Positions 2,986 through 53,300 of a stretch of DNA of 64,000 nucleotides are shown here, piece after piece. The stretch comes from an uncultured Porphyromonadaceae bacterium (lineage in GTDB: Bacteria; Bacteroidota; Bacteroidia; Bacteroidales; UBA12481). The position numbers were made by a program, and so were the translations under genes. The notes under the pieces were generated by a model. That model had not been told where the DNA came from. It did not search any database and was given only the letters and a program-made list of their open reading frames with translations. The number at the start of each line of letters is the position of its first letter. Positions within the stretch are counted from its first letter, which is position 1. Location: assembly GCA_964512915.1 (NCBI GenBank), contig CAZEKJ010000002.1, positions 152,977-216,976 on the forward strand, read 5' to 3'.

Positions 2986-3094
2986 CTTAACTCAATGTCC
3001 GGATTTAGGTAGTAATTCCAAATCAGTTGAAAATCTTTTAACAAAGGACGCAGCGCTCGCGACTGAAACATCTACATCTATAAAAGAAAATTTC

Positions 3095-33073: not shown

Positions 33074-33084
33074 TAATTACAATA

Positions 33085-33804
33085 ATGGGGAAAAAGATTT
33101 TTGTTTCATACAAATATTCTGACTCTCAAGTGCAGGATTTAAACATATATGAGGATGTGAAAAACATTTGGGGCAATGTGTATCGTCAAAAAGTAACAAC
33201 TACAGCCCGACATTATGTAGATAAAATTGATGAATTATTAGAAGCGGGTGACCATATTTTTAAAGGCGAAGATGATGGAGAGAATATGAGCACTCTCAAA
33301 GACGCTACAATCAGTTCAAAATTAGGAAACAAAATATTTGATAGCTCGGTAACTATTGTCTTGATCTCAAAAGGCATGAAGGAAACTTACAATGCTGAAA
33401 AAGATCAATGGATTCCTTGGGAGGTTTCATACTCTCTTAAAGAGCAATCAAGAGAAGGGGGAAGAAGTAAGACAAATGCTGTATTGGCAGTTGTGCTACC
33501 AGACATATTTGGAAGTTATAGTTATTATATCGAGGAAAACACTTGCCATTACTGTAATTGTAGGACCTTAAAGACGGATTTTCTTTTTCAAATTCTTCGA
33601 GATAATATGTTTAATGTGAAGAAGCCCGTTTTCACAGAATGTGAGAATCACATTGGGAGTAAACCCTATAAGGGATATTCGTCCTTTATGCATTCTGTTA
33701 AATGGTCGGACTTTATTTCAAATCCAAATTTGAATATCAACATAGCAGTTGAAATATGGCAAAATATTAATGATTATAAGATAACTAAAATTGTAACCCT
33801 ATAG
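33085..33804 (+). CDS. TIR-like protein of the DUF1863 / ThsB type
   Basis: KIFVSYKYSDSQ, a long insert, then SSVTIVLISKGMKETYNAEKDQWIPWEVSYSL. A C-terminal CHYCNC...C cluster is also present. Confidence 0.6.
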   Translation: MGKKIFVSYKYSDSQVQDLNIYEDVKNIWGNVYRQKVTTTARHYVDKIDELLEAGDHIFKGEDDGENMSTLKDATISSKLGNKIFDSSVTIVLISKGMKETYNAEKDQWIPWEVSYSLKEQSREGGRSKTNAVLAVVLPDIFGSYSYYIEENTCHYCNCRTLKTDFLFQILRDNMFNVKKPVFTECENHIGSKPYKGYSSFMHSVKWSDFISNPNLNINIAVEIWQNINDYKITKIVTL

Positions 33805-33806
33805 CC

Positions 33807-37549: not shown

Positions 37550-37925
37550 TGGCTGTTTTCAGGTTTGGCAGTGTCTATTAATATAGCACAAAGGTATTTA
37601 TCGCATCCTGATATTTGGTTCAGGATTCCTCGCTCGCTGCGCATGGAACCCGAAGGACCCGAAAATAAGCTCACCGCTGAGGCTTAAAAGCAGCGTCCCT
37701 AGAGCGGTGACCGGCTAAACCTTCTTTCCAATGGAATTTCTAAGCTTTCCTGACCGGTAACTGGGCTCTGTAGTCATTTTGAAGGACAAGCACTGATCCT
37801 CCCGAACCGGCGGTTTCTGAAGACTTCATCACAGTGATCCGAATGTAAAGGGGCACCCCGACAAACTCATAAGGCATTTCCTACAACTTCCCAGTTGCAG
37901 CCTTCCTTTCTGTAACGATCCGTGA
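37550..37925 (-). repeat. ~375-bp repeat R1 (degenerate reverse copy of the small ICE-type gene at 40812-41102 plus a 3' hairpin)
   Basis: It aligns along its length with 40210-40585 with scattered substitutions. It contains the hairpins ATCCTGA...TCAGGAT and TGCAACT-GGGA-AGTTGCA. Confidence 0.75.
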
Positions 37926-38291: not shown

Positions 38292-39341
38292 ATGGACATA
38301 TTAAAAGTACAAGAACAACTCGACAAAAATCGCAGAACTGTTTCGTTCGACAGTTACGATATCACTGTTAGACAACTTTATGACATGGTGATTGAAAAAA
38401 TGATTGACGTTGCTCCCGAGTACCAGAGACATTTCGTGTGGGGCGAAGAAAGACAATCGCAATTGGTTGAGTCCATTTTCCTAGGTATTCCCGTCCCTAG
38501 TCTCTTTATGGCTACAAATAAAGATTCAACTTGGGAAGTAATTGACGGTTTACAAAGACTGACCACAATAGTGAACTACATTGGTGATCAAGATACAATT
38601 GCCCGCATAAACAAAAACTGCAGTAAATTAAAAATTGAAGGACTTGAAAAACTAGATTCACTTAATGGTCACTACTTCGAAAATTTACCAAGGTCCCTTC
38701 AAAATATGTTTCTTACTCGCCCAATAAGAGTGACTGTGTTGAATGATAGAAGTGATTTTAGCTTACGATTTGATCTATTTGAAAGACTAAACACTGGCGG
38801 AGTAACACTTCACCCGCAAGAGATTCGAAATTGCATTTACTTAGGTGAGTTTAATGAATTCTTAAAGAAATGTGTAAGTAACCCGAACTTTAAAAACGTA
38901 ATAAAACTTACAAAAAATGCTGAGAGAACCGGAAATTTAGAGGAGCTTGCTCTCAAATTCTTCGCCTATTACGAAAGTAAAGACACATTTATTCATAGTG
39001 TTAAAGATTTTTTAAATTCGTACATGGCAGGTAAAATGTCAAATTTTAAAAATAAAGACAAGCTTAAAGATTTGTTTGATAACACTTTTGAAAAACTCAA
39101 TGAATTGCTCCCTGATGGAATTGTTCGGGGTAATAGAAAAAACATTACTCCTTTAGTTCTTTATGAAGCAATTGCTGTTGGTGTTGCGGATGTAATCGGT
39201 GAAAACAGAGCTATTAATGGACAAATTCTCATCGAATTGTTGAATGACCCAGAATTGAATCGTTTGACCACTGGTGCGACTAACTCTAGATCCAAATTGT
39301 ATCAAAGAATTGAATACGTTAAAGAGAGGCTTATAGGATGA
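38292..39341 (+). CDS. DUF262 (ParB/Srx-fold, GmrSD N-terminal-like) protein
   Basis: PEYQRHFVWGEERQSQLVESIFLGIPVPSLF...WEVIDGLQRLTTI is the DUF262 signature, including the DGQQR-type box. Confidence 0.8.
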   Translation: MDILKVQEQLDKNRRTVSFDSYDITVRQLYDMVIEKMIDVAPEYQRHFVWGEERQSQLVESIFLGIPVPSLFMATNKDSTWEVIDGLQRLTTIVNYIGDQDTIARINKNCSKLKIEGLEKLDSLNGHYFENLPRSLQNMFLTRPIRVTVLNDRSDFSLRFDLFERLNTGGVTLHPQEIRNCIYLGEFNEFLKKCVSNPNFKNVIKLTKNAERTGNLEELALKFFAYYESKDTFIHSVKDFLNSYMAGKMSNFKNKDKLKDLFDNTFEKLNELLPDGIVRGNRKNITPLVLYEAIAVGVADVIGENRAINGQILIELLNDPELNRLTTGATNSRSKLYQRIEYVKERLIG

Positions 39342-40033
39342 GTTACGCTATCATCAAAAATAGAGCGAGAGCTAGATTTAGTGAGAATCTCACTTACTTG
39401 AACCATTTAACTGCAATAGAACCGAATGACCCTACGATCCCTGCTTCACTTGAACTGAAGATAATGAAAGGACTATTCTATGTTCATTTATATTCATCGT
39501 TAGAAAAGACTATCAATGATTTATTAGAAAATACTATTATTTACATTAATTCTGAAAATATTAAAAATAAACATTACAACATTCCGTTTAACACAATTTC
39601 CCTACTGGATAAACTTCGTTCGTTTAAAGACTGTGGCTATAAGAATTTCTTCTTAAAAGCAATAGAAATATTCGAAGAGTTAAGTGGTGAAAATATACCA
39701 GTATTAAATGAAACAGCATTTTCAAACAGACTCCAAAACGTTTGGACAAAAACGATTATTGAAATGCTTCAAGCTTTTGGAATTAACAATTACACAATCG
39801 ATCCCAGAACAAGGACCACAATAGATGAAATAGTTGACAAAAGAAATGCTGTTGCACATGGAAGAGAATCAGCGTCGACTATAGGCGAAAGGTTTAGAAC
39901 AGATGTATTAAGAGTAAAAACGACTGTTGTTACAACTTTTAGTTACGACCTGATTGACACGTTTGAAAGCTATCACACCAGTAAGAAGTATTTAAAGCCG
40001 CAAGCAAGAAGATTTTATGTTGCGACACTATAG
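39338..40033 (+). CDS. HEPN-domain protein (MAE_28990/MAE_18760-like), predicted RNase
   Basis: It has a helical body with IVDKRNAVAHGRES (the R-N-x3-H HEPN motif) near the C-terminal third. It overlaps the DUF262 gene by 4 nt (ATGA). Confidence 0.65.
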   Translation: MSYAIIKNRARARFSENLTYLNHLTAIEPNDPTIPASLELKIMKGLFYVHLYSSLEKTINDLLENTIIYINSENIKNKHYNIPFNTISLLDKLRSFKDCGYKNFFLKAIEIFEELSGENIPVLNETAFSNRLQNVWTKTIIEMLQAFGINNYTIDPRTRTTIDEIVDKRNAVAHGRESASTIGERFRTDVLRVKTTVVTTFSYDLIDTFESYHTSKKYLKPQARRFYVATL

Positions 40034-40209
40034 AATTGCTGAATCCAATACAAGGTTTGTATAAGCGTTGTTGACTAGGACCAAGATAAAAATAGATTTC
40101 AAACTGGAACCCGAGTTTTAGTACTATTCAGAATAAACCGTGTTCGGCGAAAGGTCGTCTCATCGGATGTAATCACTGGCAATTATAGATTATCAAGTTC
40201 AGGATTGTC

Positions 40210-40650
40210 ACTTGTTATCAGGTTTGGCAGTGTCTATTAATAAAGCACAAAGGTATTGATCGCATCCTGATGTTTGGTTCAGGATTCATCGCAACCTGCG
40301 CACGGAACCCGAAGGACCCAAAAAAATGCTCTCCGCCAAGGCTTAAAATAAGAGTCCCAAGAACGGTGACCGGCTAAACCGTCTTTCCGATGGAATTTCT
40401 AAACTTTCTTGGCCGGTGACCGGGCACTCCGCAGTCATTTTGGAGTGGCAAGCACGGATCCTCCCGAACCGGCGGTTTCTGAAGACATCATCCCAACGAT
40501 CCGAATTTAAAGGGGCCACCCCGACAAACTCATAAGGCATATTCTGCAACTTCCCAGTTGCAGCGTTACTTTCTACAACGTTCCTACCGGACTTTCTAAG
40601 CCTTACCCTTCGTAGCCCTTCTCATTTTGTCATGACGGTTTTCTATAGCT
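40210..40650 (-). repeat. repeat R2 (direct repeat of R1; inverted, degenerate copy of the gene at 40812-41102)
   Basis: 40210-40585 matches R1. It extends to ...TTTTGTCATGACGG (about 40650), which mirrors CGTCATGACAAAA at the start of the plus-strand copy. Confidence 0.75.
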
Positions 40651-40811
40651 CAGAAAACATGGCAAAGATAAATCGGCCAATCTAATTTCAATAGTTTTTA
40701 CGGCATATCCTCCCTCCTTCGTCGGTCCGGTATTCCGCAAACTCTTGTTATTAGCTCAGCTCGATTTAATGAATATTGCCATGTTTCTAAATTATAAAAA
40801 ACAAAAAACGT

Positions 40812-41102
40812 CATGACAAAATTTGAGAAGTCCTACATCGAAAAAGGCAAGAAAGTCCAGGGTATGAACATTGTGAAAGTAACGTTGCAACTGGGAAGTT
40901 GCAGGAAATTGCTTATGATTACGAAGGAGTGGCTTATGTCACATTCGAAATCGCTGAGATGAAGAAAACCGTCAAGCCAGGACGAACCCATGCTTGCTAT
41001 CACTCCAAAATGTTGCAGGAGGCACAGGCACCAGCCAAGAAAACCAAGAAATTGAAAAGCATCGGCAAGAAGACCAGTCCGGTCGAGCCCCTGCCTTTCT
41101 AG
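40812..41102 (+). pseudogene. small conjugative-element-type ORF, frame-shifted
   Basis: MTKFEKSYIEKGKKVQGMNIVKVTLQ... changes frame at the hairpin TTGCAACTGGGAAGTTGCA and continues ...EIAYDYEGVAYVTFEIAEMKKTVKPGRTHACYHSKM.... The function is unknown. Confidence 0.4.
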
Positions 41103-41325
41103 GAACCTTGCTTAAAAAAAGCCTTAGCAATGAGGTTTTTTTTGTGCCCATCGGTTCCCTACGTAGCGGTCACCTATTGTTATTCCGGAATTGCTTCGCA
41201 CGAATACAGATTCTTATTCAACTATTATCCCGTTGTTATCCAACAATCTGACCTGCGCCATTCACCAAAAATCAGGACTGCTCAAGGTTGTAGCGCAACA
41301 TTAATCTCAGATTATCAATGGGTAT

Positions 41326-41363
41326 GCTTGCTACTCATACAAGGCCGAAAGGCATCGGTGAAC
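41326..41363 (+). repeat. ~40-nt conserved intergenic motif, copy 1
   Basis: GCTTGCTACTCATACAAGGCCGAAAGGCATCGGTGAAC shares the core with the copies at 42717 and 43831. Confidence 0.6.
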
Positions 41364-41406
41364 ATTTCCATGAAGTACGGATTCAGTAATCTCAACTCCC
41401 TGGCAG

Positions 41407-42049
41407 GTGAACGATTCAGCAGCTGCCAAACTAGTCCAGATTGGCACCAGCGCGTTATCAAACATCGAAATTCAGGCCGTAGCAACTGGAATTTCAGAAG
41501 AATGCGCCCGGAAATTATGGGTATTGGCCGGTAACGATTTTCACAATCTGGCAAAAATGTCGCTCAGTATCATGTGCCAGATCGATGGAATCACCACGGC
41601 AAGAGCCATTCGTATCGCCGCCATCTTCGAGATCGGCCGAAGAAGAAGATCCACTCCGGCAACCGTCCGGCCCAAGGTACGTTGATCTCAGGATGCCTGG
41701 AAGGTATTGGAACCATTGATGTCCGATCTCCAGCATGAAGAATTCTGGGTACTGTTACTCAACTGTTCCATTCAGATCATCGATCAGAAAAAAAATCAGC
41801 CAGGGTGGAATATCCAGTACCGTTACGGATGTACGATTGATCTTAAACGCTGCGGTGGAAAGGCATTCACCATGGATTATTCTAGCTTATAACCACCCTT
41901 CAGGCAATTTGGCTCCATCGGATGCTGATCTGAAAATCACTAAGAAAATCAAGGAAGGAGCTGCATTTCTAGATCTGTCGGTGCTGGATCACCTCATCTT
42001 TTCTGACCAAGGGTACCTCTCGATGGCTGATGACAATTTAATGCCGTAG
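41407..42049 (+). pseudogene. radC: RadC-like JAB/MPN protein, at least two frameshifts
   Basis: The N-terminal HhH part is LVQIGTSALSNIEIQAVATGI...IDGITTARAIRIAAIFEIGRR. After frame changes come EEFWVLLLN... and ILAYNHPSGNLAPSDADLKITKKIKEGAAFLDLSVLDHLIF, the HNHPSG-type JAB motif. Confidence 0.75.
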
Positions 42050-42716
42050 TCATAATGATTCAAACCCTATTCAGCTTCGGCAACAAAAAGCAGGATACAT
42101 CAACCGCGATCTTCAACATGACTCCTGAACTCAGTTGCTGTTCGGAAAAACTCGGGCTTTACCAGAATCCGAAAGCCTGCGATGCGAAATGTCCCGAACG
42201 TGCTTTCCCCGGTGTCAGGGTCACCGGAACCATCAGGCAAAGTTCTGGGACATGTGCTCTCCGAAACTTTTCATCCATGAACTGAATAAGTTTGAATTTG
42301 AAAAGCTCCGGTTCTCTGAAGTCGGTGATTTCCGGAACCAGGGCGATGTCGCGAAAATGAAAACAATTGCCCTACTGCTGGAGAAACCGGTTTGGACATA
42401 TACGGCCCGTCGGGATCTCGACTTTTCTACTCTTCCAGGTAATCTGACCATTTCCGGATCAGGATTCATGCTGGATAATCAATTCAATGCGGTACCAGGT
42501 CTGGATGATCATACCGATGGTGTTGTTTGTCCGCAAAACTGACGGATCTGTGATTATTGCTATCAGAAAACCGGCCGGCAGATCTACTGCAAAATTCATT
42601 CGCAAATAACTTTTCTGTTTCATTTCTTCATGGGTTGTACTCATGGAGCCCTCATATAAATTCATTGCTTTTTGCAAACATTAGCTCGTGAGGGGTTCAT
42701 TAAATCAATCAACCGG

Positions 42717-42757
42717 GTGCGCTTGATACCCTTACAAGTCCGAAAGGCATCGGCATT
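42717..42757 (+). repeat. ~40-nt conserved intergenic motif, copy 2
   Basis: GTGCGCTTGATACCCTTACAAGTCCGAAAGGCATCGGCATT. Confidence 0.6.
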
Positions 42758-42763
42758 TGATTA

Positions 42764-43070
42764 ATGATTTACAAAGACGTTCAGATTAATATCCATGGAA
42801 AGCAGATCATCCAGATCAACAAGCGCAAGGCCCGAAAGCATTACGATGCTGGATATGAGGTTTTCCTCCACCCTTGCAAAATGGCCTTTAATTCGCTATG
42901 GAAAAGAGCCTTGCGAGATTCCAAAAGAGATACTGACCGATACCGAAACCAAATTCGACAAATGGGTCAATCACTATGAGGCATTAAACTGCGATTCAGA
43001 ACAGGGCAGGTACTGCCGGTATTTCGTAAGAGCGGAACATTTCGATGAATTTATTGCTAAAATCCTATGA
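42764..43070 (+). pseudogene. small hypothetical ORF split over two frames
   Basis: MIYKDVQINIHGKQIIQINKRKARKHYDAGYEVFLHPCKMAF... continues in the next frame as ...GKEPCEIPKEILTDTETKFDKWVNHYEALNCDSEQGRYCRYFV. Confidence 0.4.
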
Positions 43071-43381
43071 ACCTACAAGTTTACCTGTGCACTTCTCAGC
43101 ACTTTCATCCGGTTAAGTATCCCCATGATCCACTTTGCCTGGTGTGGATCGCACAGGAAGGGAATTACCAAAAGGTAACCTCCGCTCTCACAACTTTGTC
43201 GGAATGCTTTATCTGGCCCATAAGATTGCGGATGAAAGGGGGATGAAACTCACGGTGCTTTCTACAAATATTGAAGTCGAGATCATTTATCAGTTGGATC
43301 ATAGCGGATCAACCATTTATTAAACCGGAAGAGGTGGGGAGACTCACCTCTTTTTTTATAGAAATCTTAATAATCATAATC

Positions 43382-43858
43382 ATGACAAAATCGATTCGTA
43401 AACCATGGACGAACATCACCAGGTGTTACGTCGCTATGTTGATCAAACAAAGAGCTACCATCACCGAAGATGTGTTATACGAAAAACTTGCTAGCGAGGC
43501 AGCCTTATACGCAGTAGCGTTTTTCGGACACCATAGCAAACCCGGTGATAAAAAGCTCCTCAATTATCTTTGTAAGGTGGCCGGAAAAATAGCCGGTGAA
43601 ACCACCCGGTCCTTCAACCTGAATACCTCATGGGTACACGGGAAATTCAATTGCGGGGTGATCGATACCCACCTGGGTGCGGTTGAAGTCTTCACCGAGG
43701 ATTACTTCGCCCAGGGCGATGATGGTGCCAGGGCAATCGATGAAATCCACCAAATCTGGCTGTATCTTGACTTTTCCGTTGAATCCTGCTTTGAAGTCTG
43801 GATCAGTCGGAATTTCTATACGGTGGTCTGGTTGTGCTTGATACCCCTTGAAGCCTGA
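43382..43858 (+). CDS. hypothetical protein (158 aa)
   Basis: The ATG 43382 ORF (MTKSIRKPWTNITRCYVAML...) has no recognised motif. It is followed by copy 3 of the 40-nt motif. Confidence 0.45.
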   Translation: MTKSIRKPWTNITRCYVAMLIKQRATITEDVLYEKLASEAALYAVAFFGHHSKPGDKKLLNYLCKVAGKIAGETTRSFNLNTSWVHGKFNCGVIDTHLGAVEVFTEDYFAQGDDGARAIDEIHQIWLYLDFSVESCFEVWISRNFYTVVWLCLIPLEA

Positions 43859-43874
43859 AAGGCATCGGCAATAT
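43831..43874 (+). repeat. ~40-nt conserved intergenic motif, copy 3
   Basis: GTTGTGCTTGATACCCCTTGAAGCCTGAAAGGCATCGGCAATAT. Confidence 0.6.
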
Positions 43875-44120
43875 CGTGCTTTATGTAAGGCTGAATCTCA
43901 CCCGATTTCACAGAGATCGACTATTGTAATTCTCAGAGCGCGCTATTGGGAACTGTAAAAACTCTTACCTTAGACGGCATGAACGTGTTTCTTAAATTTC
44001 AAATTATAAAGTACAATCCGATATATCTATGTGAATTCAGTCAAATTGCTATCATACAACGTGTAACGTGTTTATTTCCCCAGGAGCCTGGATATAGGGT
44101 TTGCTAAATGATTGTTAACG

Positions 44121-45242
44121 ATGAATAACGCGACAACAAGCATTGAAGATAAATTAGTAAATTGGACTGGCAGTTTTGTTGGCAGCGAATGCTCATTGCA
44201 TCAGTTGTCTCCATACATCGGTAAAATGAAATCTGCCATGGCTAAAAAACTGGTGAGTGCTTTTTCGACCAAGGGAGATACCGTCTATGATCCTTTCGCG
44301 GGATGTGGAACAATTGCTTTAGAAAGCTGGATATTGAGCCGTCAAGTTATAGCCAACGACTTGAATCTTTATGCATCAGTAGTGACAAAAGGAAAGTTAA
44401 ATCCACCTCTCTCAGTCAATTCAGCGCTTTCGTCGATTGAACAAGAGGGGATGGCTATAGAAGGGAATAATTTTGATGTAGATCTAGCCTCAATTCCAAT
44501 TTGGGTCAAAGAATTCTTTCATCCTGATACGCTAAGGGAAATCGTAATCTGGATAAATCAATTGATTCGTAAACAGGAATGGTTTCTACTTTCCTGTCTT
44601 TTGGGGATACTACATCATCAAAGGCCAGGATTCCTTTCTTATCCTAGTAGTCACACAGTTCCATACCTTAGGAATAAAAAATTTCCCATCCAAGATTTTC
44701 CTGAATTATACAGTTTTAGGGCCTTGAAACCCAGGTTGGAGAACAAAGTAAACCGTGCATTAAGTAGAGTTCCTTATTTAGATCATAACATATTGAAATT
44801 AAGCTATCAAGCTGATACAGAAACTTTGATACCCGGAATTAAAGCAGAGTCAATTATCACAAGCCCTCCATATATGAGAAGATTGGATTACGGTAGAGAT
44901 AACAGACTAAGACTTTACTTTCTTGGGGAAAATGAATGGAAGCAATTAGATGATAAAGTGTCACCATCTGAAGAAAAGTTTTTGAATAGTATGCGTAATT
45001 GCTTTATCACGTGGCTTGAGGTCTTAGATGCTGGAGGAAATTGTGTACTTGTACTGGACGACAGTGTAAGCAAAAAGTATAAAATGCCCCTTACTGATGC
45101 ATTGGTTAAAATTGCAGTTGAGGAAGTTGGGGGATATAAACATATAGCCAGCTTTTCAGACCCGATTCCAAATGATAGAAGAGTTCGGAGGAATCATAAC
45201 GGGAGCAATACCGAAATAGTAGTCGCATTAAGACGATGTTGA
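44121..45242 (+). CDS. DNA methyltransferase (N4-cytosine or N6-adenine; motif I before motif IV)
   Basis: The AdoMet motif I is VYDPFAGCGTIALESW. The catalytic motif IV is IITSPPYMRRLDY. The roughly 180 residues between them would hold the target-recognition region. ATG 44121 is preferred over TTG 44112. Confidence 0.8.
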   Translation: MNNATTSIEDKLVNWTGSFVGSECSLHQLSPYIGKMKSAMAKKLVSAFSTKGDTVYDPFAGCGTIALESWILSRQVIANDLNLYASVVTKGKLNPPLSVNSALSSIEQEGMAIEGNNFDVDLASIPIWVKEFFHPDTLREIVIWINQLIRKQEWFLLSCLLGILHHQRPGFLSYPSSHTVPYLRNKKFPIQDFPELYSFRALKPRLENKVNRALSRVPYLDHNILKLSYQADTETLIPGIKAESIITSPPYMRRLDYGRDNRLRLYFLGENEWKQLDDKVSPSEEKFLNSMRNCFITWLEVLDAGGNCVLVLDDSVSKKYKMPLTDALVKIAVEEVGGYKHIASFSDPIPNDRRVRRNHNGSNTEIVVALRRC

Positions 45243-47761
45243 AAATGAAAATATCATCAGCAGACATAAAAGATGACCCAAACATCGGCTTAAACCCATG
45301 GAAAGACTATATTCTTCAAGAATTCGTTGGTAAAGGAAAAATTGGAAAAGTATACAAAGCTATAAGTAAAGCTAATCCAAACGATATTTTAGCCTGCAAA
45401 GTGATTTTACCCGAAAAGCTAAAAGCTGGATGGGAACGAGAATTAGAAAAACTATCAATGCTTAGAGGCATCTCGACTGTTGTTCCATATTTTAATTCTG
45501 GTGTTGCTTCATATGATCTCAACAAGTCATATGTTTTTGTCATGTATCAATTTATTGATGGATGCAATCTGAAAGATTATATAAAACAGCATGGAAATAT
45601 TGACTTAGCATTAATTGAGCTCTTAGCCCAAACAATTATCAAGGTTTTATTTGCTTGCCAGAAGGTAAATATCCTACATGGGGACCTACATGAAGGTAAT
45701 ATTATGATTAGCAAACCTGATGACCGAATTGTAGGCAGCCCAAAAACTATTTGGGTTACAGACTTCGGATACGGTGGTTCTCATAATCACGTTCGACCAA
45801 AAGATGATCTAAAGCAGCTATTCTCAATTCTCTCAGCACTGCTCCATAAGTTAAGCAAAAGCGAATTAAACCCGAGGGACCGAATCGTTTATGATAAAAT
45901 TCAGGAACTTCTTGATACCAAATTATTAGAACACGACGCTACTCAAAAGAAGTATGCATCCATCGAATCAATAGTATATGATTTCGAAAACATTGGTAGA
46001 AATGCTGAAGTTCAAGTAGCCGTGGAAAAGCAAGGAGGGTTAGTTCAAGGTCCGGGTGATTATTTATGGGCTGAAGCGTTAGGCTATAGGGCGAACGAAT
46101 GGAAGATTTTATTTGTTCCTGAAATCTTAGGATCAAGAGATCTTTTAAGTAAAAACATCACCATACTAACCGGTGCCAGAGGATGTGGAAAAACTATGGC
46201 ATTTAGACGTCTTACGGCTTACATGGATGCCCTAATAGGTGAGAATTCCGGTGTTCAAGGTGCGGACGAATTTGTTGGTTTTTATGTCAATTGTAGAGAT
46301 ATTGTAGAAGCATTTCCCTGGCTTCCCCTTGAAGGGAATATTGCCATTGCACATCAAATAATCCATTTTTTTCACCTCTTATGGCTTGCTGAGATATGTA
46401 AAACATTGGCAATTAAAGATATAACTATAAGTTTCAATTGGTTAGATTCATTCATTAACAAGATATTTAAGAATAGGTACCAGAGTTTGCCTGAAGGCGC
46501 AGATGTTTTATCTCACGTAAGGGCATTTGTAGAAAATGAAAAGGAAAAATGTCGACTTACGAGAGTTGGGAAAATTGATGGAATTGAGGAATGGCCATTA
46601 CTAAGAATAGATTTTTTAGACTTGGTGCAAAAAGAACTCCACCAAAATATTCCTTGGATTGCTAGGCGACCATTATATTTCTTTTTAGATGATTATACAA
46701 TTCCGACTATTACGCGCTCAACACAACGTGTTTTAAATCCAATTATCTTCAAAAGGAGAAGCGATCTATTTTTTAAAATTTCAACTGAGTCCTCAAATAG
46801 TTTTGACAATTTGGGAATTCAAGGAAAACCTCTTGAACTAAATCAGGATTATGAACTAATTGATATGGCAACTGAAAGCTTGCACCAGAATGAAAGGAGC
46901 AAGCAAGAATTGTTAAACAAGATTTTCATTCCCAGGATAGATAGACATATAAAATTAAAAAATCAAAACCTTAACCTTTTAGATATCCTCGGCAAAACAA
47001 CATTTTCGGGTAACGAATTAGCACGGAAAATGCGAGAAGCCTCCCAGAATGGAAATCAGAAAAGAATTGAATATCATGGTATTAGTGCATTTGTAGGTAT
47101 GTGGTCCAGTGATACACGATCAATGATTCAAATGTTTGTCGATGTGCTTCGTGAAGCCGAGATTGACACTAGTGGACAGCCCTTTTTCCCAGTTAAAGCT
47201 GCAATACAGGATCGCGTATATAGGACCGCGGGAGGTGAATTATTAAAATTTATGGAATCAGTTACTGATCCTTCCTCTTGGGAACTTGGTAAGCTTGAAA
47301 CCTCTACGAAACTTGGTGGGAAATTCGGAAATCACCTGAAAGACATTGTTGAAGCATTCATTAATGTTTCTCGGTACGAGATGACTCAGGGTAACTTGGT
47401 CTCAAATCAAGGACGACAAATCCCTAAACAGGCATTTCGAATTGAGATTCTGGATAAGTTTGAACTGCCAGAAGAAATATCGAATAGCTATTATATAGGT
47501 TTAACTAGATGGCATATTTTTTTCCAGGATTGGAGAGGGAAGAGCGTGAGAGGAATGCTTACACCACGACTCTTTTTAAACCGGATGTTAATCCCTTATA
47601 CAAATCTGACATTTTCATCGCATGACAGTTTAGCATTTAATAACGACGAGTTCATTAGGCTCTTGGCAGACCCCAAAGCATTCTATGTTTACTGGAAGAA
47701 AAAGCGAAGAGGCCCGATCAATGTCGACACAGGCCCTAATTTATTCAATCAGAAATCTTAG
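45236..47761 (+). CDS. Ser/Thr-protein-kinase-like domain fused to a P-loop NTPase
   Basis: Kinase motifs are the Gly loop VGKGKIGKVY, Lys ILACKVI, catalytic loop HGDLHEGNIMI and DFG (VTDFGYG). Next come Walker A ILTGARGCGKTMAF and Walker B LYFFLDDYT, then about 350 further residues. The start ATG overlaps the methyltransferase stop (ATGTTGA). Confidence 0.8.
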   Translation: MLKMKISSADIKDDPNIGLNPWKDYILQEFVGKGKIGKVYKAISKANPNDILACKVILPEKLKAGWERELEKLSMLRGISTVVPYFNSGVASYDLNKSYVFVMYQFIDGCNLKDYIKQHGNIDLALIELLAQTIIKVLFACQKVNILHGDLHEGNIMISKPDDRIVGSPKTIWVTDFGYGGSHNHVRPKDDLKQLFSILSALLHKLSKSELNPRDRIVYDKIQELLDTKLLEHDATQKKYASIESIVYDFENIGRNAEVQVAVEKQGGLVQGPGDYLWAEALGYRANEWKILFVPEILGSRDLLSKNITILTGARGCGKTMAFRRLTAYMDALIGENSGVQGADEFVGFYVNCRDIVEAFPWLPLEGNIAIAHQIIHFFHLLWLAEICKTLAIKDITISFNWLDSFINKIFKNRYQSLPEGADVLSHVRAFVENEKEKCRLTRVGKIDGIEEWPLLRIDFLDLVQKELHQNIPWIARRPLYFFLDDYTIPTITRSTQRVLNPIIFKRRSDLFFKISTESSNSFDNLGIQGKPLELNQDYELIDMATESLHQNERSKQELLNKIFIPRIDRHIKLKNQNLNLLDILGKTTFSGNELARKMREASQNGNQKRIEYHGISAFVGMWSSDTRSMIQMFVDVLREAEIDTSGQPFFPVKAAIQDRVYRTAGGELLKFMESVTDPSSWELGKLETSTKLGGKFGNHLKDIVEAFINVSRYEMTQGNLVSNQGRQIPKQAFRIEILDKFELPEEISNSYYIGLTRWHIFFQDWRGKSVRGMLTPRLFLNRMLIPYTNLTFSSHDSLAFNNDEFIRLLADPKAFYVYWKKKRRGPINVDTGPNLFNQKS

Positions 47762-47771
47762 AATTACCAAT

Positions 47772-48842
47772 ATGAACCTTTCAGAATTGAATTCTGCTCA
47801 AATATTGGAACCTAATGGCAGGAGATTGTTTATTGGCGCCTATGGTTTCGAACATCGAACGTTGGGATGGCTTGAGTATCAAAAATCCCAGAAAGATATT
47901 ATAAATCATGCTCTTATGTTCAGATATAACCCTTCAAAAGGTCATGAGAACAATCCAAACAAAATTAAGGAAGTAAATAAAGCCCTAACGGCTATCGGGG
48001 CGCACCATCAACCTGATGAGATTATCTATAGTTGGCTTATGCCTCAAGGTGTTGAAAATGATATCGAAGATTATTTTGCCTCTCATCTAAAAAATTTTAA
48101 TGAGGTCATTGTGGATGTGTCTTCCATGACCAAGTTCTTAATACTAATTTGTCTATGTAAACTTATCCATTTCAATGGTGCGGTTAGAATCATCTATTCT
48201 GAGGCAGAGAAATATTCGCCTACCTTTAAGGATTATGAAAAGTCAATGGAGGATATGGCTTTTCTAGCAATGTTCCCAAGTCAGGGTGTTCGTGCAATAG
48301 CGAGAGCAAGATGTTTGAGTAGTATAAGAATGCAAGGACAGCCGATTACGCTCATTACCTTCACATCATTTAATGAACAACTGGTTCGTCATCTTTTAGG
48401 AACAATGAATCCACATCAACTGGTATTTATTAATGGTCACCCCCCCCGTCCTGATTTCGCTTGGAGAGAAAAGGCCACTCAGGAAATTCATAAAAAATTG
48501 ATTGAAGCATACAAATCTGATAATCCAATAGGAGGTAATGGTCTTTTGGTAAATAGTGTAAGTACGCTTGACTACAAAGAAACCGTAGAAATCATTAACA
48601 GAATTTACTTGCAACTTGGAAGTTATGAGCGAATAATTTGTGGAGCAACGGGTAGCAAAATGCAAACAGTTGGCTTGTTTTTTGCTAAGGTTTTGCATCC
48701 TGATATTCATATTGAGTACCCAACACCTGATAGTTATTATTTTGAGGGATTAAGTCAAGGGATACGAAAAATTTATGAAATCGAGATTCCGAATTTTTCA
48801 AAATTCGTTGAAGATCAAAAGATTCATTCAATTGACAGTTGA
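47772..48842 (+). CDS. hypothetical protein (356 aa), two Rossmann-like halves, no catalytic motif recognised
   Basis: ATG 47772 lies 10 nt after the upstream stop. It contains VIVDVSSMTKFLILICL and RIICGATGSKMQTVGLFFA, two similar strand-loop-helix elements loosely reminiscent of CARF-type D/GxTGGTK loops. Earlier in-frame ATGs at 47685 and 47721 overlap the upstream gene. Confidence 0.6.
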   Translation: MNLSELNSAQILEPNGRRLFIGAYGFEHRTLGWLEYQKSQKDIINHALMFRYNPSKGHENNPNKIKEVNKALTAIGAHHQPDEIIYSWLMPQGVENDIEDYFASHLKNFNEVIVDVSSMTKFLILICLCKLIHFNGAVRIIYSEAEKYSPTFKDYEKSMEDMAFLAMFPSQGVRAIARARCLSSIRMQGQPITLITFTSFNEQLVRHLLGTMNPHQLVFINGHPPRPDFAWREKATQEIHKKLIEAYKSDNPIGGNGLLVNSVSTLDYKETVEIINRIYLQLGSYERIICGATGSKMQTVGLFFAKVLHPDIHIEYPTPDSYYFEGLSQGIRKIYEIEIPNFSKFVEDQKIHSIDS

Positions 48843-48879: not shown

Positions 48880-49179
48880 TTAGTCTTCTATCCACCAAGA
48901 GAAATTATCTGTAATAATGAATTCATTTTTCTCTAAATGGTGTGCTGTCTTCATGGGAATTGTCCGATACTGCAAATGATGCTTGTCCGCGAGAAGTCGT
49001 TTTTCTTTTGTGTCGTCATACGTCAACATAAATCTACCCTTGAGTTGTGCTGTCAACTTAAGTAACTTTTCATGATCTATATTGAAGTATGTGTACAGGC
49101 CTTTCATGGAAGCCTGTAATAAGGAACTGGTTGATTCAGTAACTATATCCAATACCGAACTTAGTGCCACTATTGACAT
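48880..49179 (-). pseudogene. Dam-type (D12 class) N6-adenine methyltransferase, C-terminal fragment
   Basis: ...HEKLLKLTAQLKGRFMLTYDDTKEKRLLADKH...HHLEKNEFIITDNF is the C-terminal block of D12 methylases. The N-terminal catalytic part is missing, and the 211-bp repeat begins 12 bp beyond it. Confidence 0.5.
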
Positions 49180-49190
49180 GCTCTCCTAGG

Positions 49191-49401
49191 TGGAAGAAAC
49201 GGATAAAATGACCAGTCCCCGCCATTTTGGGTTGACCAGTTCCTATTGAGTTAATTGACCCAAGATAAACTTCTCGCTATAAGTCTGATGGCGACAACAA
49301 ATTAGGTAGTCAAATTATTCCGGCCGCCGCTGATCAACGCGTTCGGCGGAAGGTGGTAAAATAGACCGGCAAGGACTGGATTTTTCCCTCGGCGTATCCA
49401 C
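49191..49401 (-). repeat. 211-bp MITE-like repeat, copy A (derived from the IS630 left end)
   Basis: It is nearly identical to 52399-52609 and homologous in reverse to 4744-4955. Its ends TGGAAGAAACGGATAAAATGACCAGTCC and GGACTGGATTTTTCCCTCGGCGTATCCAC form an imperfect terminal inverted repeat. Confidence 0.75.
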
Positions 49402-49447: not shown

Positions 49448-50626
49448 CTATTTTACTATTGCAAGTACTGGATTATCCATTTCAGTCAGACCTTTGAGTT
49501 TTTTCAATAAGATTGGATCTATGCTTTGAGAATCAAGCAATCCTTTGTTAGCAGCAAGTCCAAGCTGTTCAGCATCAATTGAAAAGATTAAACCCTCATT
49601 TGAGTATCCCACAAAATGAAATAATGGGAAAGAAATTCCGAAAAGGTTGACATCCGAAAGTTTCTTCACTTTAGATTCATCTTTTTTATAATTCACTTTA
49701 CATATATACCTAAACTGATCATTACTAGCATGACAATACAAGTAATCTCCAACAACACAAAACCATCCACTCTTAAAGGACAATTTATTCTCCCGGAATA
49801 ATGATCCCATACTTTTTGCCGATTCAATTTCCTTTTTGGAAAGGCTACCTATTCCTTTGGGGGAGAAATCAATTTTTAGAAACGGTGTAATTCCCTGAGG
49901 AACTATTGAGTAAATGGTATCTGTCAAGTAATATGAAAACAAAATTGAGTCTCTAAAATTTTGAAAATTCAAGATTTCGCCCATTTCAATTGCACCATCC
50001 TTAATTCGGTGCATCAATGGAAATGGTTCTGATTTTTCATTAATTAAACGATAAACCTTGAACGGCATTTTTGAATTGATGTCAGAAACGAAAAGGTCTA
50101 CATCTTTTGAAATATTCGCGAATTCATTTACCCAAAAAGGAAGTTGAGTTTTTTTAACTAATACACCGTCTTTTGAAAACTGGTGAATGATCATTCCTCC
50201 ATCTAATATATAGATATCCCCATTTTCGACATTAACCGAAATTTTGTTAGCTGACATAATCTCTCCAGGACCCTTGCCCTTTTTTGACTTCCATATCAGC
50301 TCTCCAAAATTGTTGAAAATATACACATTACCCAGTGAACCTTGCCTTTCTTCACGCAAATAAACTCTGTCTTCCAGAATTTGAGCGAACCCAATTTTAG
50401 AAATAAATAAAAAGCTATCCCTTTGTTCGGGTGACTTGGCAAATTTTTCTATTCTATTGCTGATGGGTAATATTCTTACTAGCGTAAAATCAAATTGATT
50501 GTCTTCTTCAAGGTTTATTTTAACCGTTTGTAAATCAAAAGAATTATTTAAGGTCAGCCTGTTCCTTTGGCAGTTAGTAAAGGTCACCAACAAAAATGTA
50601 AGTACTAAATGGCAAAATATTCTCAT
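49448..50626 (-). CDS. 6-bladed beta-propeller family lipoprotein (BF3164-like)
   Basis: The signal MRIFCHLVLTFLLVTFTNC is followed by the KKGKGPGEI motif and a repeated-strand pattern. It is a paralog of 3095-4342. Its start overlaps the upstream gene's stop by 4 nt. Confidence 0.65.
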   Translation of the reverse strand: MRIFCHLVLTFLLVTFTNCQRNRLTLNNSFDLQTVKINLEEDNQFDFTLVRILPISNRIEKFAKSPEQRDSFLFISKIGFAQILEDRVYLREERQGSLGNVYIFNNFGELIWKSKKGKGPGEIMSANKISVNVENGDIYILDGGMIIHQFSKDGVLVKKTQLPFWVNEFANISKDVDLFVSDINSKMPFKVYRLINEKSEPFPLMHRIKDGAIEMGEILNFQNFRDSILFSYYLTDTIYSIVPQGITPFLKIDFSPKGIGSLSKKEIESAKSMGSLFRENKLSFKSGWFCVVGDYLYCHASNDQFRYICKVNYKKDESKVKKLSDVNLFGISFPLFHFVGYSNEGLIFSIDAEQLGLAANKGLLDSQSIDPILLKKLKGLTEMDNPVLAIVK

Positions 50627-51228
50627 TTTAATAAATGCTTATAGAATGATAAATATGTTTCTGTTCGAATTGGTAAATATGTTTCTGATTGAAAAAAATA
50701 CGAAATATTTTTACTATTCTTAGAGTAAATGCAATAAAATGGAGAATCAAACGCGTTGAAGAAATTTTCGTAAAATGAATGATTAACAAACGTAATAGGA
50801 TAGTCTAAAGCCATGGTATTGGCAAAGATAATTGCCTCTCTTTTTGATTGACCAAAGTAGATGAATTGGCATTCACTTTTCGAAAAATTAAACTTTTTTA
50901 TTAATTCTATTTCCGAATTAACGCAAGGAGAACAAAAATCACTGGAAACAAAAACGATAAAACTTTTAGCATTTAAATTGTTAGAGTTAACAACGCTATC
51001 AATCAAATTTACAACTTCCAGCTTAGATAACGATCCTTCGAGAAGAATCTGACTTTCTCCTTTTATTTTTTGAATAACTACCTCATGGGTATCAATACTA
51101 TTTCTTAACAAAACTTCTGTCTCAATCGCCTTGCTCAATTTACTTTTCACACTAAAGTATAAAATACAGCCTATTACGATAAATATAATAACTAGAAGAT
51201 CTCCGATATTCTTTACTATTCTTGACAT
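50623..51228 (-). CDS. thioredoxin-fold (TlpA/redoxin-like) membrane-anchored protein
   Basis: It has an N-terminal TM segment (LLVIIFIVIGCILYF) and a CxxC active-site context FVSSDFCSPCVNSEIELIKKF. Confidence 0.6.
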   Translation of the reverse strand: MSRIVKNIGDLLVIIFIVIGCILYFSVKSKLSKAIETEVLLRNSIDTHEVVIQKIKGESQILLEGSLSKLEVVNLIDSVVNSNNLNAKSFIVFVSSDFCSPCVNSEIELIKKFNFSKSECQFIYFGQSKREAIIFANTMALDYPITFVNHSFYENFFNAFDSPFYCIYSKNSKNISYFFQSETYLPIRTETYLSFYKHLLK

Positions 51229-51283
51229 ATTACAGTCTTAAAAAAACGGGCAAGTAAATCTTGCCCGTTTACATTATTACATA

Positions 51284-51583
51284 TTAATCTGGGTAGGGGT
51301 CTTCAAACTGTGTACAATTTTTGGTCCAATCACAGAAGAAGCAACATTCGGATTCACAAGACCCAAGATAGTTCACTTCAAACTCACAAACAAAAAGCCA
51401 GTTGGCGTTCGTGCAGTTTTCACAGAGGACTTCTGTTTGGTCCCATTCCATAGCAGTTGTAACGCAATTGCAATCCTTACCACCAGGTTTCTCACTCATT
51501 GCTGGCATTGGGAAGATAATCACATTTATCAGCAATAAAAAGAATACGATAATAACCGGCGAAATAATTTTTAACTTTTTCAT
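51284..51583 (-). CDS. secreted Cys-rich protein, paralog A (10 Cys in the predicted mature part)
   Basis: MKKLKIISPVIIVFFLLLINVIIFPMPAMS is a signal peptide. It is followed by ...DCNCVTT...LCENC...VCEFEVNYLGSCESECCFFCDWTKNCTQFEDPYPD. An alternative upstream ATG at 51619 would overlap paralog B. Confidence 0.6.
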   Translation of the reverse strand: MKKLKIISPVIIVFFLLLINVIIFPMPAMSEKPGGKDCNCVTTAMEWDQTEVLCENCTNANWLFVCEFEVNYLGSCESECCFFCDWTKNCTQFEDPYPD

Positions 51584-51599
51584 AATCTGGAGTTTTGCT

Positions 51600-51884
51600 T
51601 TATTCATCAGGGATTTCAAAATTCAAGCAGTTTTGTGTCCAATTGCAGAAGTAGCAATGTGTTGATCTACATGTTTGCAAATAATCCTTTTTATATTCAC
51701 AAACATTAACTTTGAAGGTGGATGAGCATCCGCCACAATCCAGTGACTTAAGTTCATAATCCTTTGCTGTCATAACACAATAATCGCTTCCTTCATCTGC
51801 AATTACCTTTTGAGTAAAGGGCGTTTCTATGACAACTAAAACAAACAGGAAACTCAAAACAAGCCAAGGTTTAAATTTTTTCAT
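51600..51884 (-). CDS. secreted Cys-rich protein, paralog B (8 Cys in the predicted mature part)
   Basis: MKKFKPWLVLSFLFVLVVIETPFT is a signal peptide. It is followed by ...YCVMT...LDCGGC...VCEYKKDYLQTCRSTHCYFCNWTQNCLNFEIPDE. It shares the C-terminal pattern VCE[FY]..-YL..C.S..C.FC.WT.NC..FE.P with paralog A. Confidence 0.6.
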   Translation of the reverse strand: MKKFKPWLVLSFLFVLVVIETPFTQKVIADEGSDYCVMTAKDYELKSLDCGGCSSTFKVNVCEYKKDYLQTCRSTHCYFCNWTQNCLNFEIPDE

Positions 51885-52262
51885 ATACGTGAACAAATTA
51901 AAATTATGCCTACTAATTTTACGGGTCTTTCGGCATTGGCCCTGTAGATACCGGGTGATCATTCCTTTCTACTATCCTAATATTGAACATGTTCACAAAA
52001 ACTATATTACTAAGGAATCAACTAGGGATCCTCGTTTGATTGGAAAAATTGTAACATCATTCAGCCCTTATTAAAATCAATTATAGCGCAATCTTAAAAT
52101 AAGTGATTCGTATCGATAATTTAATGTGCCAATTTTACAAATCTTACTAATAGAATTCGTATTTTATTCAGTGTAAAATTACTATTGTACTCGGACCGCA
52201 CAATGACAAGATTGTCATTATTTTAGCAACTCCGAAATGTTCATATTTAAGAATTTACATAT

Positions 52263-52394
52263 TTAACTTAGTGTTTCTATTGTAGGCATCGACTGCATGG
52301 CTTCAATCCTTCCAATGTGTATTCCAGTTTCTTCAAAGAATTGAATTTGGCTTAACCCCTTTTGAATGCCTGCATCCTTGATTTTCCGAATCAT
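52263..52394 (-). pseudogene. XRE-family HTH regulator, truncated paralog of 7655-7921
   Basis: MIRKIKDAGIQKGLSQIQFFEETGIHIGRIEAMQSMPTIETLS is followed by a stop. The next frame continues KICKFLNMNISELLK. It shares TGIHIGRIE with the intact gene. Confidence 0.5.
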
Positions 52395-52398
52395 TTCA

Positions 52399-52609
52399 TG
52401 GAAGAAACGGATAAAATGACCAGTCCCCGCTATTTTGGGTTGATCAGTTCCTATTGAGTTAATTGACCCAAGATAAACTTCTCGCTATAAGTCTGATGGC
52501 GACAACAAATTAGGTAGTCAAATTATTCCGGCCGCCGCTGATCAACGCGTTCGGCGGAAGGTGGTAAAATAAACCGGCAAGGACTGGTTTTTTCCCTCGG
52601 CGTATCCAC
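52399..52609 (-). repeat. 211-bp MITE-like repeat, copy B
   Basis: It has the same length and ends as copy A with a handful of substitutions. It begins 5 bp from the truncated XRE start codon. Confidence 0.75.
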
Positions 52610-53226: not shown

Positions 53227-53300
53227 TGGGCCCACCTGGGCTTGAACCAGGGACCCTCTGATTATGAGTCAGATGCTCTGACCAGCTGAGCTATGGGCCC
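53227..53300 (-). tRNA. tRNA with CAU anticodon (Met, or Ile2 if lysidine-modified)
   Basis: The minus strand reads GGGCCCATAGCTCAGCTGGTCAGAGCATCTGACTCATAATCAGAGGGTCCCTGGTTCAAGCCCAGGTGGGCCCA. It has a 7-bp acceptor stem GGGCCCA/TGGGCCC, an anticodon stem TCTGA/TCAGA with loop CTCATAA, and a T-arm CTGGTTCAAGCCCAG. No CCA is encoded. Confidence 0.9.

Follow-up and report, generated by a model that had tools for sequence, protein, structure and literature searches.

The region analysed here is a 64,000-nucleotide (nt) stretch of contig CAZEKJ010000002.1, referred to below as the window, in which a compact set of three plus-strand genes occupies positions 44121-48842 (~4.7 kb). We named the members of this trio g1 (a methylase), g2 (a fusion of a kinase with a P-loop ATPase) and g3 (a protein of predicted CARF fold). 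The amino-methyltransferase g1 (44121-45242) is 373 amino acids long, was defined by its open reading frame (ORF) call together with Pfam and PADLOC matches, and has an alternative TTG start at 44112; g2 (45236-47761) encodes 841 amino acids and combines the Pfam domains Pkinase and ORC-CDC6-like; g3 (47772-48842) encodes a stand-alone, two-lobed protein of 356 amino acids. All three are intact, co-directional and full length relative to their homologs. The ORFs of g1 and g2 overlap by 7 nt, with the g2 ATG (45236-45238) placed one base ahead of the g1 TGA (45240-45242), and a second in-frame ATG of g2, at 45245, is the start of an 838-residue protein in the public databases. Only 10 nt separate the g2 TAG (47759-47761) from the g3 ATG at 47772. 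This arrangement bears out the three ORFs and the tight coupling reported in a first-pass annotation of the same DNA, which had been made from its letters alone. A scan for promoters and terminators, which is ill-suited to Bacteroidota-type promoters, returned matches at chance level only.

In g1, motif I (PFAGCGT, residues 58-64) precedes motif IV (SPPY, residues 248-251); both had been read by the first-pass annotation, both are present in the translation, and a conservation profile over 79 loci showed them to be invariant. The same profile revealed a nearly invariant block, LGILHHQRPGFLSYPSSH-VPYLR, between the two motifs and no hypervariable target-recognition region. By way of motif I the protein matches the Pfam families N6_N4_Mtase (7.6e-12), UPF0020 and MethyltransfD12, and PADLOC MTase_II models match it over nearly its full length (best 1.9e-18). 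Its best full-length matches are the PADLOC type II DNA methylase model PDLC03239 (residues 27-335, 2.2e-11) and DNA methyltransferase families of phages in PHROGs, and its homologs are annotated as DNA methylases at source. Solved beta-class methylases retrieved in a PDB search align at the two motifs only and in permuted order. Of the parts of a classical type II restriction-modification (R-M) system, the trio contains the methylase with motifs I and IV; searches for a cognate restriction endonuclease (Pfam, NCBIfam, PADLOC, PHROGs, PDB profiles and Foldseek) recognised no nuclease family or fold in g2 or g3.

The second gene joins a kinase to an ATPase in one ORF, as the first-pass annotation had proposed, with Pfam matches to Pkinase (2.1e-14) and ORC-CDC6-like (3.1e-19) that recur as a pair in 418 g2 homologs; all of the motifs reported for it (GKGKIGKVY, ACKV, HGDLHEGN, DFG, GARGCGKT and FFLDDY) were found in the translation. 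Its best PADLOC match is the fused-protein model CARF6--CARF_STK_AAA (3.9e-22). The kinase domain (approximately residues 22-250, 45299-45985, plus strand) has a Hanks-type core with a truncated C-lobe: the Pkinase match scores 54 bits against a cut-off of 31.7 and spans profile positions 3-146 of 263. Within this core the Hanks catalytic set is complete (Gly loop, VAIK Lys, alpha-C Glu, HxD, Asn and DFG). When residue conservation was counted over 77 loci, K55 and E69 were present in 76, D150, N155 and D176 in all 77, and H148 in 76 or 77. PDB profiles of CDK9, ULK1 and RAD53 match from the N-lobe to DFG only; a complete C-lobe with an APE motif and subdomains IX-XI was not found in these alignments, which end near residue 180, and a family-specific G-G-S-H-N segment follows DFG. 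Judged by its catalytic residues, the kinase looks active despite its truncated C-lobe.

The central part of g2 (residues 292-575, 46109-46960, plus strand) is an ORC/Cdc6-like, STAND-like P-loop NTPase domain (PF24389; 69.6 bits against a cut-off of 27), which is also precomputed for the homologs listed. Its Walker A motif, GARGCGKT, holds an arginine (R315) within the P-loop, and its Walker B motif, FFLDD, supplies D485 and D486; these three residues, G313, K319 and R567 are conserved in 77 of 77 loci. No sequence relative of this region was found in the PDB, and even at E≤1 it matches only one PADLOC model, PDLC01925 (CARF6--CARF_STK_AAA). The remaining C-terminal region (residues 576-841, 46961-47758, plus strand) was modelled with AF2 as a bundle of helices with a small alpha/beta domain after it (pLDDT 79, pTM 0.80). 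It matched no protein family and no PDB sequence, and a Foldseek search with the model returned no fold match in the PDB (best E 1.2) or BFVD (best E 0.57). No part of g2 is more conserved: D626, E737, R758, D765 and D797 occur in all 77 loci, and R767 and S794 in 76.

The third protein, g3, matches no Pfam or NCBIfam family, and a PDB sequence search gave no useful match. Its closest profiles are those of CARF6 proteins in PADLOC: CARF6--CARF_CARF_CARF covers residues 18-340 (2.4e-11), five further CARF6 models match, and weaker matches connect g3 to CasR and to the C-terminal part of CARF6--CARF_STK_AAA (5e-5). An AF2 model (pLDDT 91, pTM 0.92) folds the chain into two Rossmann-like lobes, the first formed by residues 1-178 (47772-48305, plus strand) and the second by residues 186-356 (48327-48839, plus strand). 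In Foldseek searches with this model, Csa3, Csm6 and Can1 were matched with probability 1.0, Can1 covering the query best, and Can2 and Cad1 were among the matches at probabilities of ~0.5-0.9. Below the Pfam cut-offs, 120 g3 homologs gave weak matches to HFX_2341_N (39 homologs), Csa3_N (6) and CARF_Card1 (2).

CARF domains carry a signature, [DN]x[ST]xxx[RK], placed after strand 4. In lobe 1, D115-V-S-S-M-T-K121 has the form D-x-S-x-x-x-K and sits where a strand (111-115) ends, before a helix (121-133); across the 120 homologs K121 is invariant and D115 nearly so. The corresponding element of lobe 2, T293-G-S-K296, is one residue shorter. These elements belong to the four most conserved segments of the protein (G25-F-E-x-R29, D115..K121, F197..Q203 and T293..T299), each of which ends a predicted strand, and it is at the C-terminal ends of strands that Rossmann folds bind their ligands. 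The first-pass annotation had singled out VDVSSMTK and GATGSKM as two similar strand-loop-helix elements. Both strings are in the translation and both do fall in post-strand loops, one in each Rossmann-like lobe, but the lobes themselves have no detectable sequence similarity, and an internal duplication at the sequence level was rejected (hhalign probability 0.2%). On the basis of the CARF6 profiles, the Foldseek matches to Csa3, Csm6 and Can1, and the D-x-S-x-x-x-K element, g3 is a two-lobed protein of predicted CARF fold, which fits the sensor role that had been one of two suggested for it. A few homologs (P0241, P0278 and P0249) have an additional C-terminal domain, namely HisKA plus HATPase_c, a calcineurin-like phosphoesterase or TIR; they could be genuine fusions or the product of read-through in gene calling. 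No cyclase or cas10 gene is conserved near g3 across ~100 loci.

The pairing of g2 with g3 has a precedent. Makarova et al. 2014 (PMC4012209) described a fusion family in which a Zn ribbon, a Ser/Thr/Tyr kinase, an AAA+ domain, a CARF domain and a winged helix-turn-helix (wHTH) follow one another and in which the P-loop contains an arginine. This family, represented in PADLOC by PDLC01925, has the same domains in the same order as g2-g3 (kinase, P-loop ATPase, CARF) and shares with g2 the arginine inside Walker A, which is R315 of GARGCGKT in 77 of 77 loci. On the 1187-residue CARF6--CARF_STK_AAA profile, g2 aligns to positions 123-684 and g3 to positions 929-1007. The window proteins are, at the same time, distant matches to that profile (E 4e-22 and 5e-5) and differ from the fusion in three respects: the CARF part is a separate two-lobed gene that begins 10 nt past g2; g2 lacks an N-terminal Zn ribbon, having no cysteine in its first 21 residues; and no wHTH was detected in g3, whose model ends in a single helix past lobe 2. 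Because the best match of g2 and the C-terminal match of g3 both fall on CARF_STK_AAA, and because the P-loop arginine is shared, the association of kinase, ATPase and CARF is not new; the profile alignments show g2 and g3 to be the split form of the known fusion.

A methylase partner is not mentioned in the text on the 2014 fusion family (PMC4012209). The first-pass annotation had recognised no named system of this architecture, and PADLOC v2 indeed names none for the trio, although the fused kinase–AAA+–CARF family had already been described and has its own PADLOC profile. Our literature search found no named system for the trio, no description of a split three-gene operon with an obligatory methylase and none of a methylase hub; the 2020 CARF census that defined CARF6 may already contain a methylase link. 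The methylase partnership and the mechanism of the trio appear to be undescribed. It is a widespread, intact and uncharacterised methylation-linked module, two parts of which were earlier catalogued as a fusion.

To follow the trio across genomes we relied on alignment-based pattern scans, a first locus scan with g3 alone having given no loci. Two such scans were positive in at least 137 of the 185,579 species genomes of GTDB. Close homologs of g3 (>50% identity) number 317 and come from Bacteroidota, Patescibacteria, Desantisbacteria, Acidobacteriota and Methanoperedens, and an exhaustive g3 profile search gave 801 representative clusters. In subfamily 1, g1-g2-g3 occur in this order at 14 of 18 fetched loci, the other four being cut by contig ends. 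For a divergent subfamily 2, with identities of ~40% (g1), ~27% (g2) and ~28% (g3), 119 loci were confirmed; 80 of them were fetched, and ~64 of these have the trio. A third trio group at 30-35% identity is found in Planctomycetota, Clostridia (including Ruminococcus), Bathyarchaeia and methanogens (including Methanoregula). Overall, the gene order recurs in ~100 fetched loci from more than 15 phyla, archaea among them. The first-pass annotation had treated the three genes as one module, and they do recur as a self-contained unit across phyla and domains; none of them matched a housekeeping family. Their co-inheritance in one order across bacteria and archaea is far beyond chance.

All-against-all clustering of the flanking ORFs identified no fourth conserved gene. 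The flanks are unrelated between loci and include housekeeping genes, PIN toxins, RHS and PDDEXK genes, and an integrative conjugative element (ICE) with genes for an integrase, a type IV secretion system coupling protein, CHAT, RadC and Fic. On plasmid pBq66S1MBc of Bradyrhizobium quebecense the module comprises four genes, kinase and ATPase being encoded separately. On the same plasmid an Mrr_cat restriction endonuclease gene (2551-3585 of the locus) lies two genes upstream of the methylase and is not kept elsewhere. A decayed copy in a Verrucomicrobiae genome (contig_4491, retrieved as L012, L104 and L124) keeps g1 and g3 and only the last ~250 residues of g2, and lies among housekeeping genes. 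No g3 match was found in the phage collection, and the plasmid collection contained a single distant g2 match. The 50-60% identity that archaeal and Bacteroidota proteins share indicates transfer, and the trio is a self-contained, horizontally mobile unit. Cultured carriers include Flagellimonas taeanensis JCM 17757 (trio at ~155.0-159.7 kb of NZ_QXFO01000008.1), Dyadobacter frigoris AR-3-8 (methylase with ParA and SIR2) and B. quebecense 66S1MB.

The methylase family extends beyond the trio. At 359 confirmed genome loci it exceeds the g2 and g3 families in size, and we tabulated the genes accompanying it in the best 80 of these, counting three loci under both of the two commonest classes. A kinase-ATPase accompanies the methylase at 41 loci, 37 of which also have a CARF-like gene, and a DUF262/GmrSD_N protein does so at 26, 22 of them with a 215-residue protein that has a conserved RNAIAH (Rx4H) motif. 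Less frequent companions are a ParB_N protein with a 471-residue partner of no assigned family (5 loci), a ParA-like ATPase with SIR2 (2 loci) and a TPR pair (1 locus); the other 8 loci have metabolic gene neighbours or are cut by contig ends. Examples of the non-kinase cassettes are L107/L116 (Bryobacteraceae), L110, L146 (D. frigoris AR-3-8) and L152. In one Candidatus Doudnabacteria array (L127, 5929-13074) the methylase is followed by DUF262, the Rx4H protein, a kinase-ATPase of 900 residues and a CARF-like gene, so that two response cassettes stand behind a single methylase, and two further loci retain a DUF262 remnant between g1 and g2. The g1 family is thus a hub with interchangeable two-gene cassettes downstream. 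That it also occurs ahead of DUF262, ParB_N and SIR2 cassettes is what one would predict of a methylase that marks self and is followed by genes that answer non-self, and the hub offers further candidate methylation-linked systems in the DUF262 plus Rx4H, the ParB_N plus 471-residue and the ParA plus SIR2 cassettes.

The window has a DUF262 gene of its own. A GmrSD_N/DUF262 protein (38292-39341) and a HEPN RiboL-PSP protein (39338-40033), both on the plus strand and assigned with Pfam, lie 4 kb upstream of g1. The DUF262 domain is homologous to that of the methylase-linked proteins (BLASTP 2e-21, hhalign 98.9%), and the HEPN protein has only the HEPN Rx4H motif in common with the methylase-linked 215-residue protein. 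This pair is a possible second cassette linked to the trio.

Several known systems resemble the trio in part. The first-pass annotation had pointed to the Pgl/BREX type 2 system, and this link holds as an analogy only. Like that system the trio has a methylase, a Ser/Thr kinase and an ORC/Cdc6-type ATPase with no classical restriction nuclease gene, and by analogy it may work in a similar way. No match to the alkaline-phosphatase-fold protein PglZ was found in g1-g3, nor is any other gene conserved across the loci, and the PADLOC profiles of BrxC, PglY, BrxD, PglX and PglW match nothing in the trio. The components differ in size and build as well: PglX has ~1200 residues compared with 373 for g1, whose listed PADLOC matches are type II models plus one weak HmaB, and the BrxC/PglY ATPase has ~1200 residues, whereas the g2 ATPase is fused to a kinase in a protein of 841. 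PglW consists of NERD, pseudokinase and kinase domains in 1400-1600 residues and ends in an inactive STAND/ORC-Cdc6 domain (PMC12839542); g2 has a single kinase domain from residue 22, with no NERD and no tandem pseudokinase. BREX type 2 also includes BrxHI, which the trio lacks, and in turn lacks the CARF-fold partner.

The MADS system (mad1-8) is likewise methylation-associated and includes a protein kinase, Mad6, to which the g2 kinase core is similar (PADLOC 3.7e-17). It has eight genes, however, and g2 scores 29.2 bits against the NCBIfam MAD6 model NF047741, whose cut-off is 460; with no other mad gene in the trio and no further conserved genes at its loci, identity with MADS was rejected. 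An ORC/Cdc6-clade ATPase accompanies a methylase in MANTIS/Gao_RL and in the DUF499 BREX-related systems (PMC12839542), as it does in the trio, and in MANTIS this ATPase, MtsA, loads the methylase on DNA (bioRxiv 10.64898/2026.09.23.753747). MANTIS/Gao_RL was rejected as the identity of the trio on component differences: it has a helicase-PLD nuclease effector, DUF3870 and a DUF499-type ATPase, and neither a kinase nor a CARF protein. The CARF proteins of type III CRISPR systems (Csa3, Csm6, Can1, Can2, Cad1) resemble g3 in its predicted fold, and Can1 is also a two-CARF chain; g3 differs in having no fused effector and no CRISPR-Cas or cyclase genes nearby, and its sequence likeness to them is at profile level only. 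Many profiles of PD-T4-6 defence kinases match the Hanks core of g2 (best 3.3e-15), but PD-T4-6 systems consist of a single gene, with no ATPase, CARF protein or methylase. The kinase contexts of CoCoNuT and TerY-P were provisionally set aside.

We put at about even the chance that the trio is a methylation-linked conflict or defence module with a kinase output, acting in the following way. The methylase g1 would methylate host DNA (at N6 of adenine or N4 of cytosine) at a target conserved within the family and so mark it as self, and g2 and g3 would form the response cassette. In g2, the ORC/Cdc6-like ATPase and the C-terminal domain could form a switch, powered by ATP, that engages DNA, possibly also loading or reading the methylase in the manner of MtsA from MANTIS. 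The CARF-fold protein would bind a nucleotide-type ligand in a pocket formed by the four invariant strand-end loops and thereby gate g2. The kinase would be the output, phosphorylating host or phage proteins and arresting the infection by an abortive or dormancy-type response, with no cutting of DNA. An R-M-like logic is suggested by the co-inheritance of the three genes, by the occurrence of g2 and g3 in both fused and split form, and by the exchangeable cassettes behind one methylase family. This division of roles among switch, gate and output is suggested by the invariant catalytic residues, by the lack of a recognisable nuclease and by the precedent of stand-alone defence kinases, together with the loading of a methylase by the ATPase of MANTIS. 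In such stand-alone systems (PD-T4-6, Stk2) the kinase is itself the effector. More tentatively, the fixed-target methylase family may be a common self mark into which different cassettes plug, the kinase/CARF version being a nuclease-free, methylation-gated one in which phosphorylation halts infection and no dedicated cyclase is used.

Several observations weigh against this proposal. The Foldseek matches of g3 to CARF proteins are modest (E ~1e-4, TM 0.25-0.46), and generic two-lobe Rossmann proteins score alike. The methylase has no variable target-recognition domain (TRD), unlike the diversifying methylases of R-M and BREX, and it also matches families of the RNA m2G type weakly (UPF0020, and PF03602 in some homologs). 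The trio proteins are unusually conserved, at 50-60% identity between phyla, and some loci lie among housekeeping genes. The cassette itself was found to contain no known effector or signal generator, be it a nuclease, a cyclase or another.

The main rival, which we regard as unlikely, places a cryptic nuclease that cleaves unmethylated DNA in the g2 C-terminus or in g3, so that the system would be R-M-like and the kinase and ATPase would only regulate it. In its favour, the C-terminal region, the most conserved part of g2, has acidic and basic residues that are invariant over 77 loci, and two of the sister cassettes contain DUF262/GmrSD_N or ParB_N, typical of DNA-targeting enzymes. Other sister cassettes, however, deploy non-DNase effectors (SIR2 and the Rx4H/HEPN-like protein), and none of the six kinds of search described above recognised a nuclease in g2 or g3.

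We assign a low probability to a CARF-gated kinase that listens in trans to a cyclic oligonucleotide or related signal from another system of the cell (type III CRISPR, CBASS or TIR/Thoeris type), with the methylase as an unrelated passenger or a regulator. CARF domains are established sensors of cyclic oligoadenylates (cOA) and g3 resembles Csa3, Csm6 and Can1; several TIR and SLOG genes stand 10 kb upstream in the window, and rare g3 homologs are fused to TIR or a metallophosphoesterase. Those fusions are few and perhaps gene-calling artefacts, the ~100 trio loci have no conserved cyclase, cas10 or TIR neighbour, and the methylase is nearly always there, translationally coupled.

It is similarly improbable that the trio is an antidote-toxin (addiction) module, in which the effect of the downstream cassette would be neutralised when g1 methylates a conserved substrate other than DNA (RNA, protein or a small molecule). 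The missing variable TRD, the nearly invariant block between motifs I and IV and the motif-level matches to RNA m2G methylases (UPF0020, PF03602) would all suit such a role, as would partner cassettes with RNase-like (Rx4H) and NADase-like (SIR2) proteins. They are set against the best full-length matches of g1, which are to type II DNA methylase models and phage DNA methyltransferase PHROGs, against the annotation of its homologs as DNA methylases, and against the DUF262 and ParB_N partners, which point to DNA.

A signalling or epigenetic regulatory module outside defence, serving for example the cell cycle or a stress response, is quite improbable. Housekeeping neighbours at some loci, high conservation and the lack of hypervariable sensor regions are what such a module might show, but the module is thinly and patchily spread (at least 137 of the 185,579 species genomes), the identity of 50-60% between archaea and Bacteroidota indicates transfer, the trio lies in defence islands, ICEs and a plasmid and has left a decayed copy (L012/L104), and its cassette is exchangeable with SIR2, DUF262 and Rx4H (HEPN-like) cassettes. 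Least credible of all, and very improbable, is a trio that is BREX type 2/Pgl miniaturised by descent: the shared inventory of methylase, Ser/Thr kinase and ORC/Cdc6-type ATPase and the inactive STAND/ORC-Cdc6 domain of PglW are outweighed by the missing PglZ, by the failure of all five BREX profiles to match, by a g2 ATPase that matches CARF6--CARF_STK_AAA only, even at E≤1, and by the differences in size and methylase class.

To our knowledge, the known methylation-based defences (R-M, BREX, DISARM, MADS and MANTIS) end in DNA cleavage or an unresolved replication block. If the proposed kinase output is correct, phosphorylation would be a new output for methylation-based immunity, and its combination with a CARF-fold sensor would join epigenetic self-marking to immunity of the signal-transduction type. 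The ligand of the CARF protein might in that case be a nucleotide that derives from a phage or relates to methylation, which would be a new CARF input, and g3 raises the question of CARF sensing outside cOA signalling. A cassette of ~4.7 kb would also be a small handle on nuclease-free sensing of unmethylated DNA.

In the window the trio is embedded among densely packed defence genes, which form an island beside a tRNA gene and include Roc-COR, four TIR genes, SLOG, TIR-NUDIX and the GmrSD_N plus HEPN pair. An IS91-family Y2 transposase lies beside a tyrosine integrase (21639-23715, minus strand), and the far side of the island has the tRNA gene (53227-53300, minus strand), which is the sole Rfam match in the window; transposase, integrase and far-side tRNA are consistent with an integrated mobile island. 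An LRR-Roc-COR GTPase gene (23924-26239) is followed at 30777-35660 by five co-directional genes encoding TIR, TIR, SLOG cluster 3, ThsB-like TIR and TIR-NUDIX proteins. This run and the Roc-COR gene look like a separate, signalling-type defence cluster.

The DUF262 and HEPN genes (38292-40033) are flanked by direct repeats of ~370 nt (37554-37921 and 40213-40584, ~87% identical), of which a partial inverted copy lies at 40875-40933, and the pair may have moved as a unit. From there to the trio, the 4 kb at 40034-44110 are without long ORFs. They contain an N-terminally truncated RadC/JAB fragment (41735-42049) and a 41-nt repeat that is present three times (at 41320, 42715 and 43830); the segment between the two cassettes resembles coding sequence that has decayed. 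A RadC gene is also found near the trio at L106.

Downstream of g3 lies a convergent ORF of 99 codons (48880-49179, minus strand) that is not part of the trio. The first-pass annotation had called it a truncated Dam-type methylase fragment cut by a repeat resembling a miniature inverted-repeat transposable element (MITE). The convergent ORF is there, but it has no Pfam, NCBIfam or PDB match. Its PADLOC matches are all weak: type II methylase models align to it with their C-terminal part (7.6e-5), and PD-Lambda-5_B is matched at 2.1e-4. Possibly the ORF is what is left of the C-terminus of a type II methylase. The repeat, 211 nt long (49191-49401, second copy at 52399-52609, 98% identical), does abut the ORF, and its MITE-like nature is plausible, although only weak sub-terminal inverted repeats were found. 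Its two copies bracket a four-gene block on the minus strand (49448-52398), which encodes a DUF5128 beta-propeller protein, a 201-residue CxxC protein and a paralogous pair of small Cys-rich proteins whose N-termini are hydrophobic (51284-51619 and 51600-51962), and which may be a peptide or bacteriocin-like cassette.

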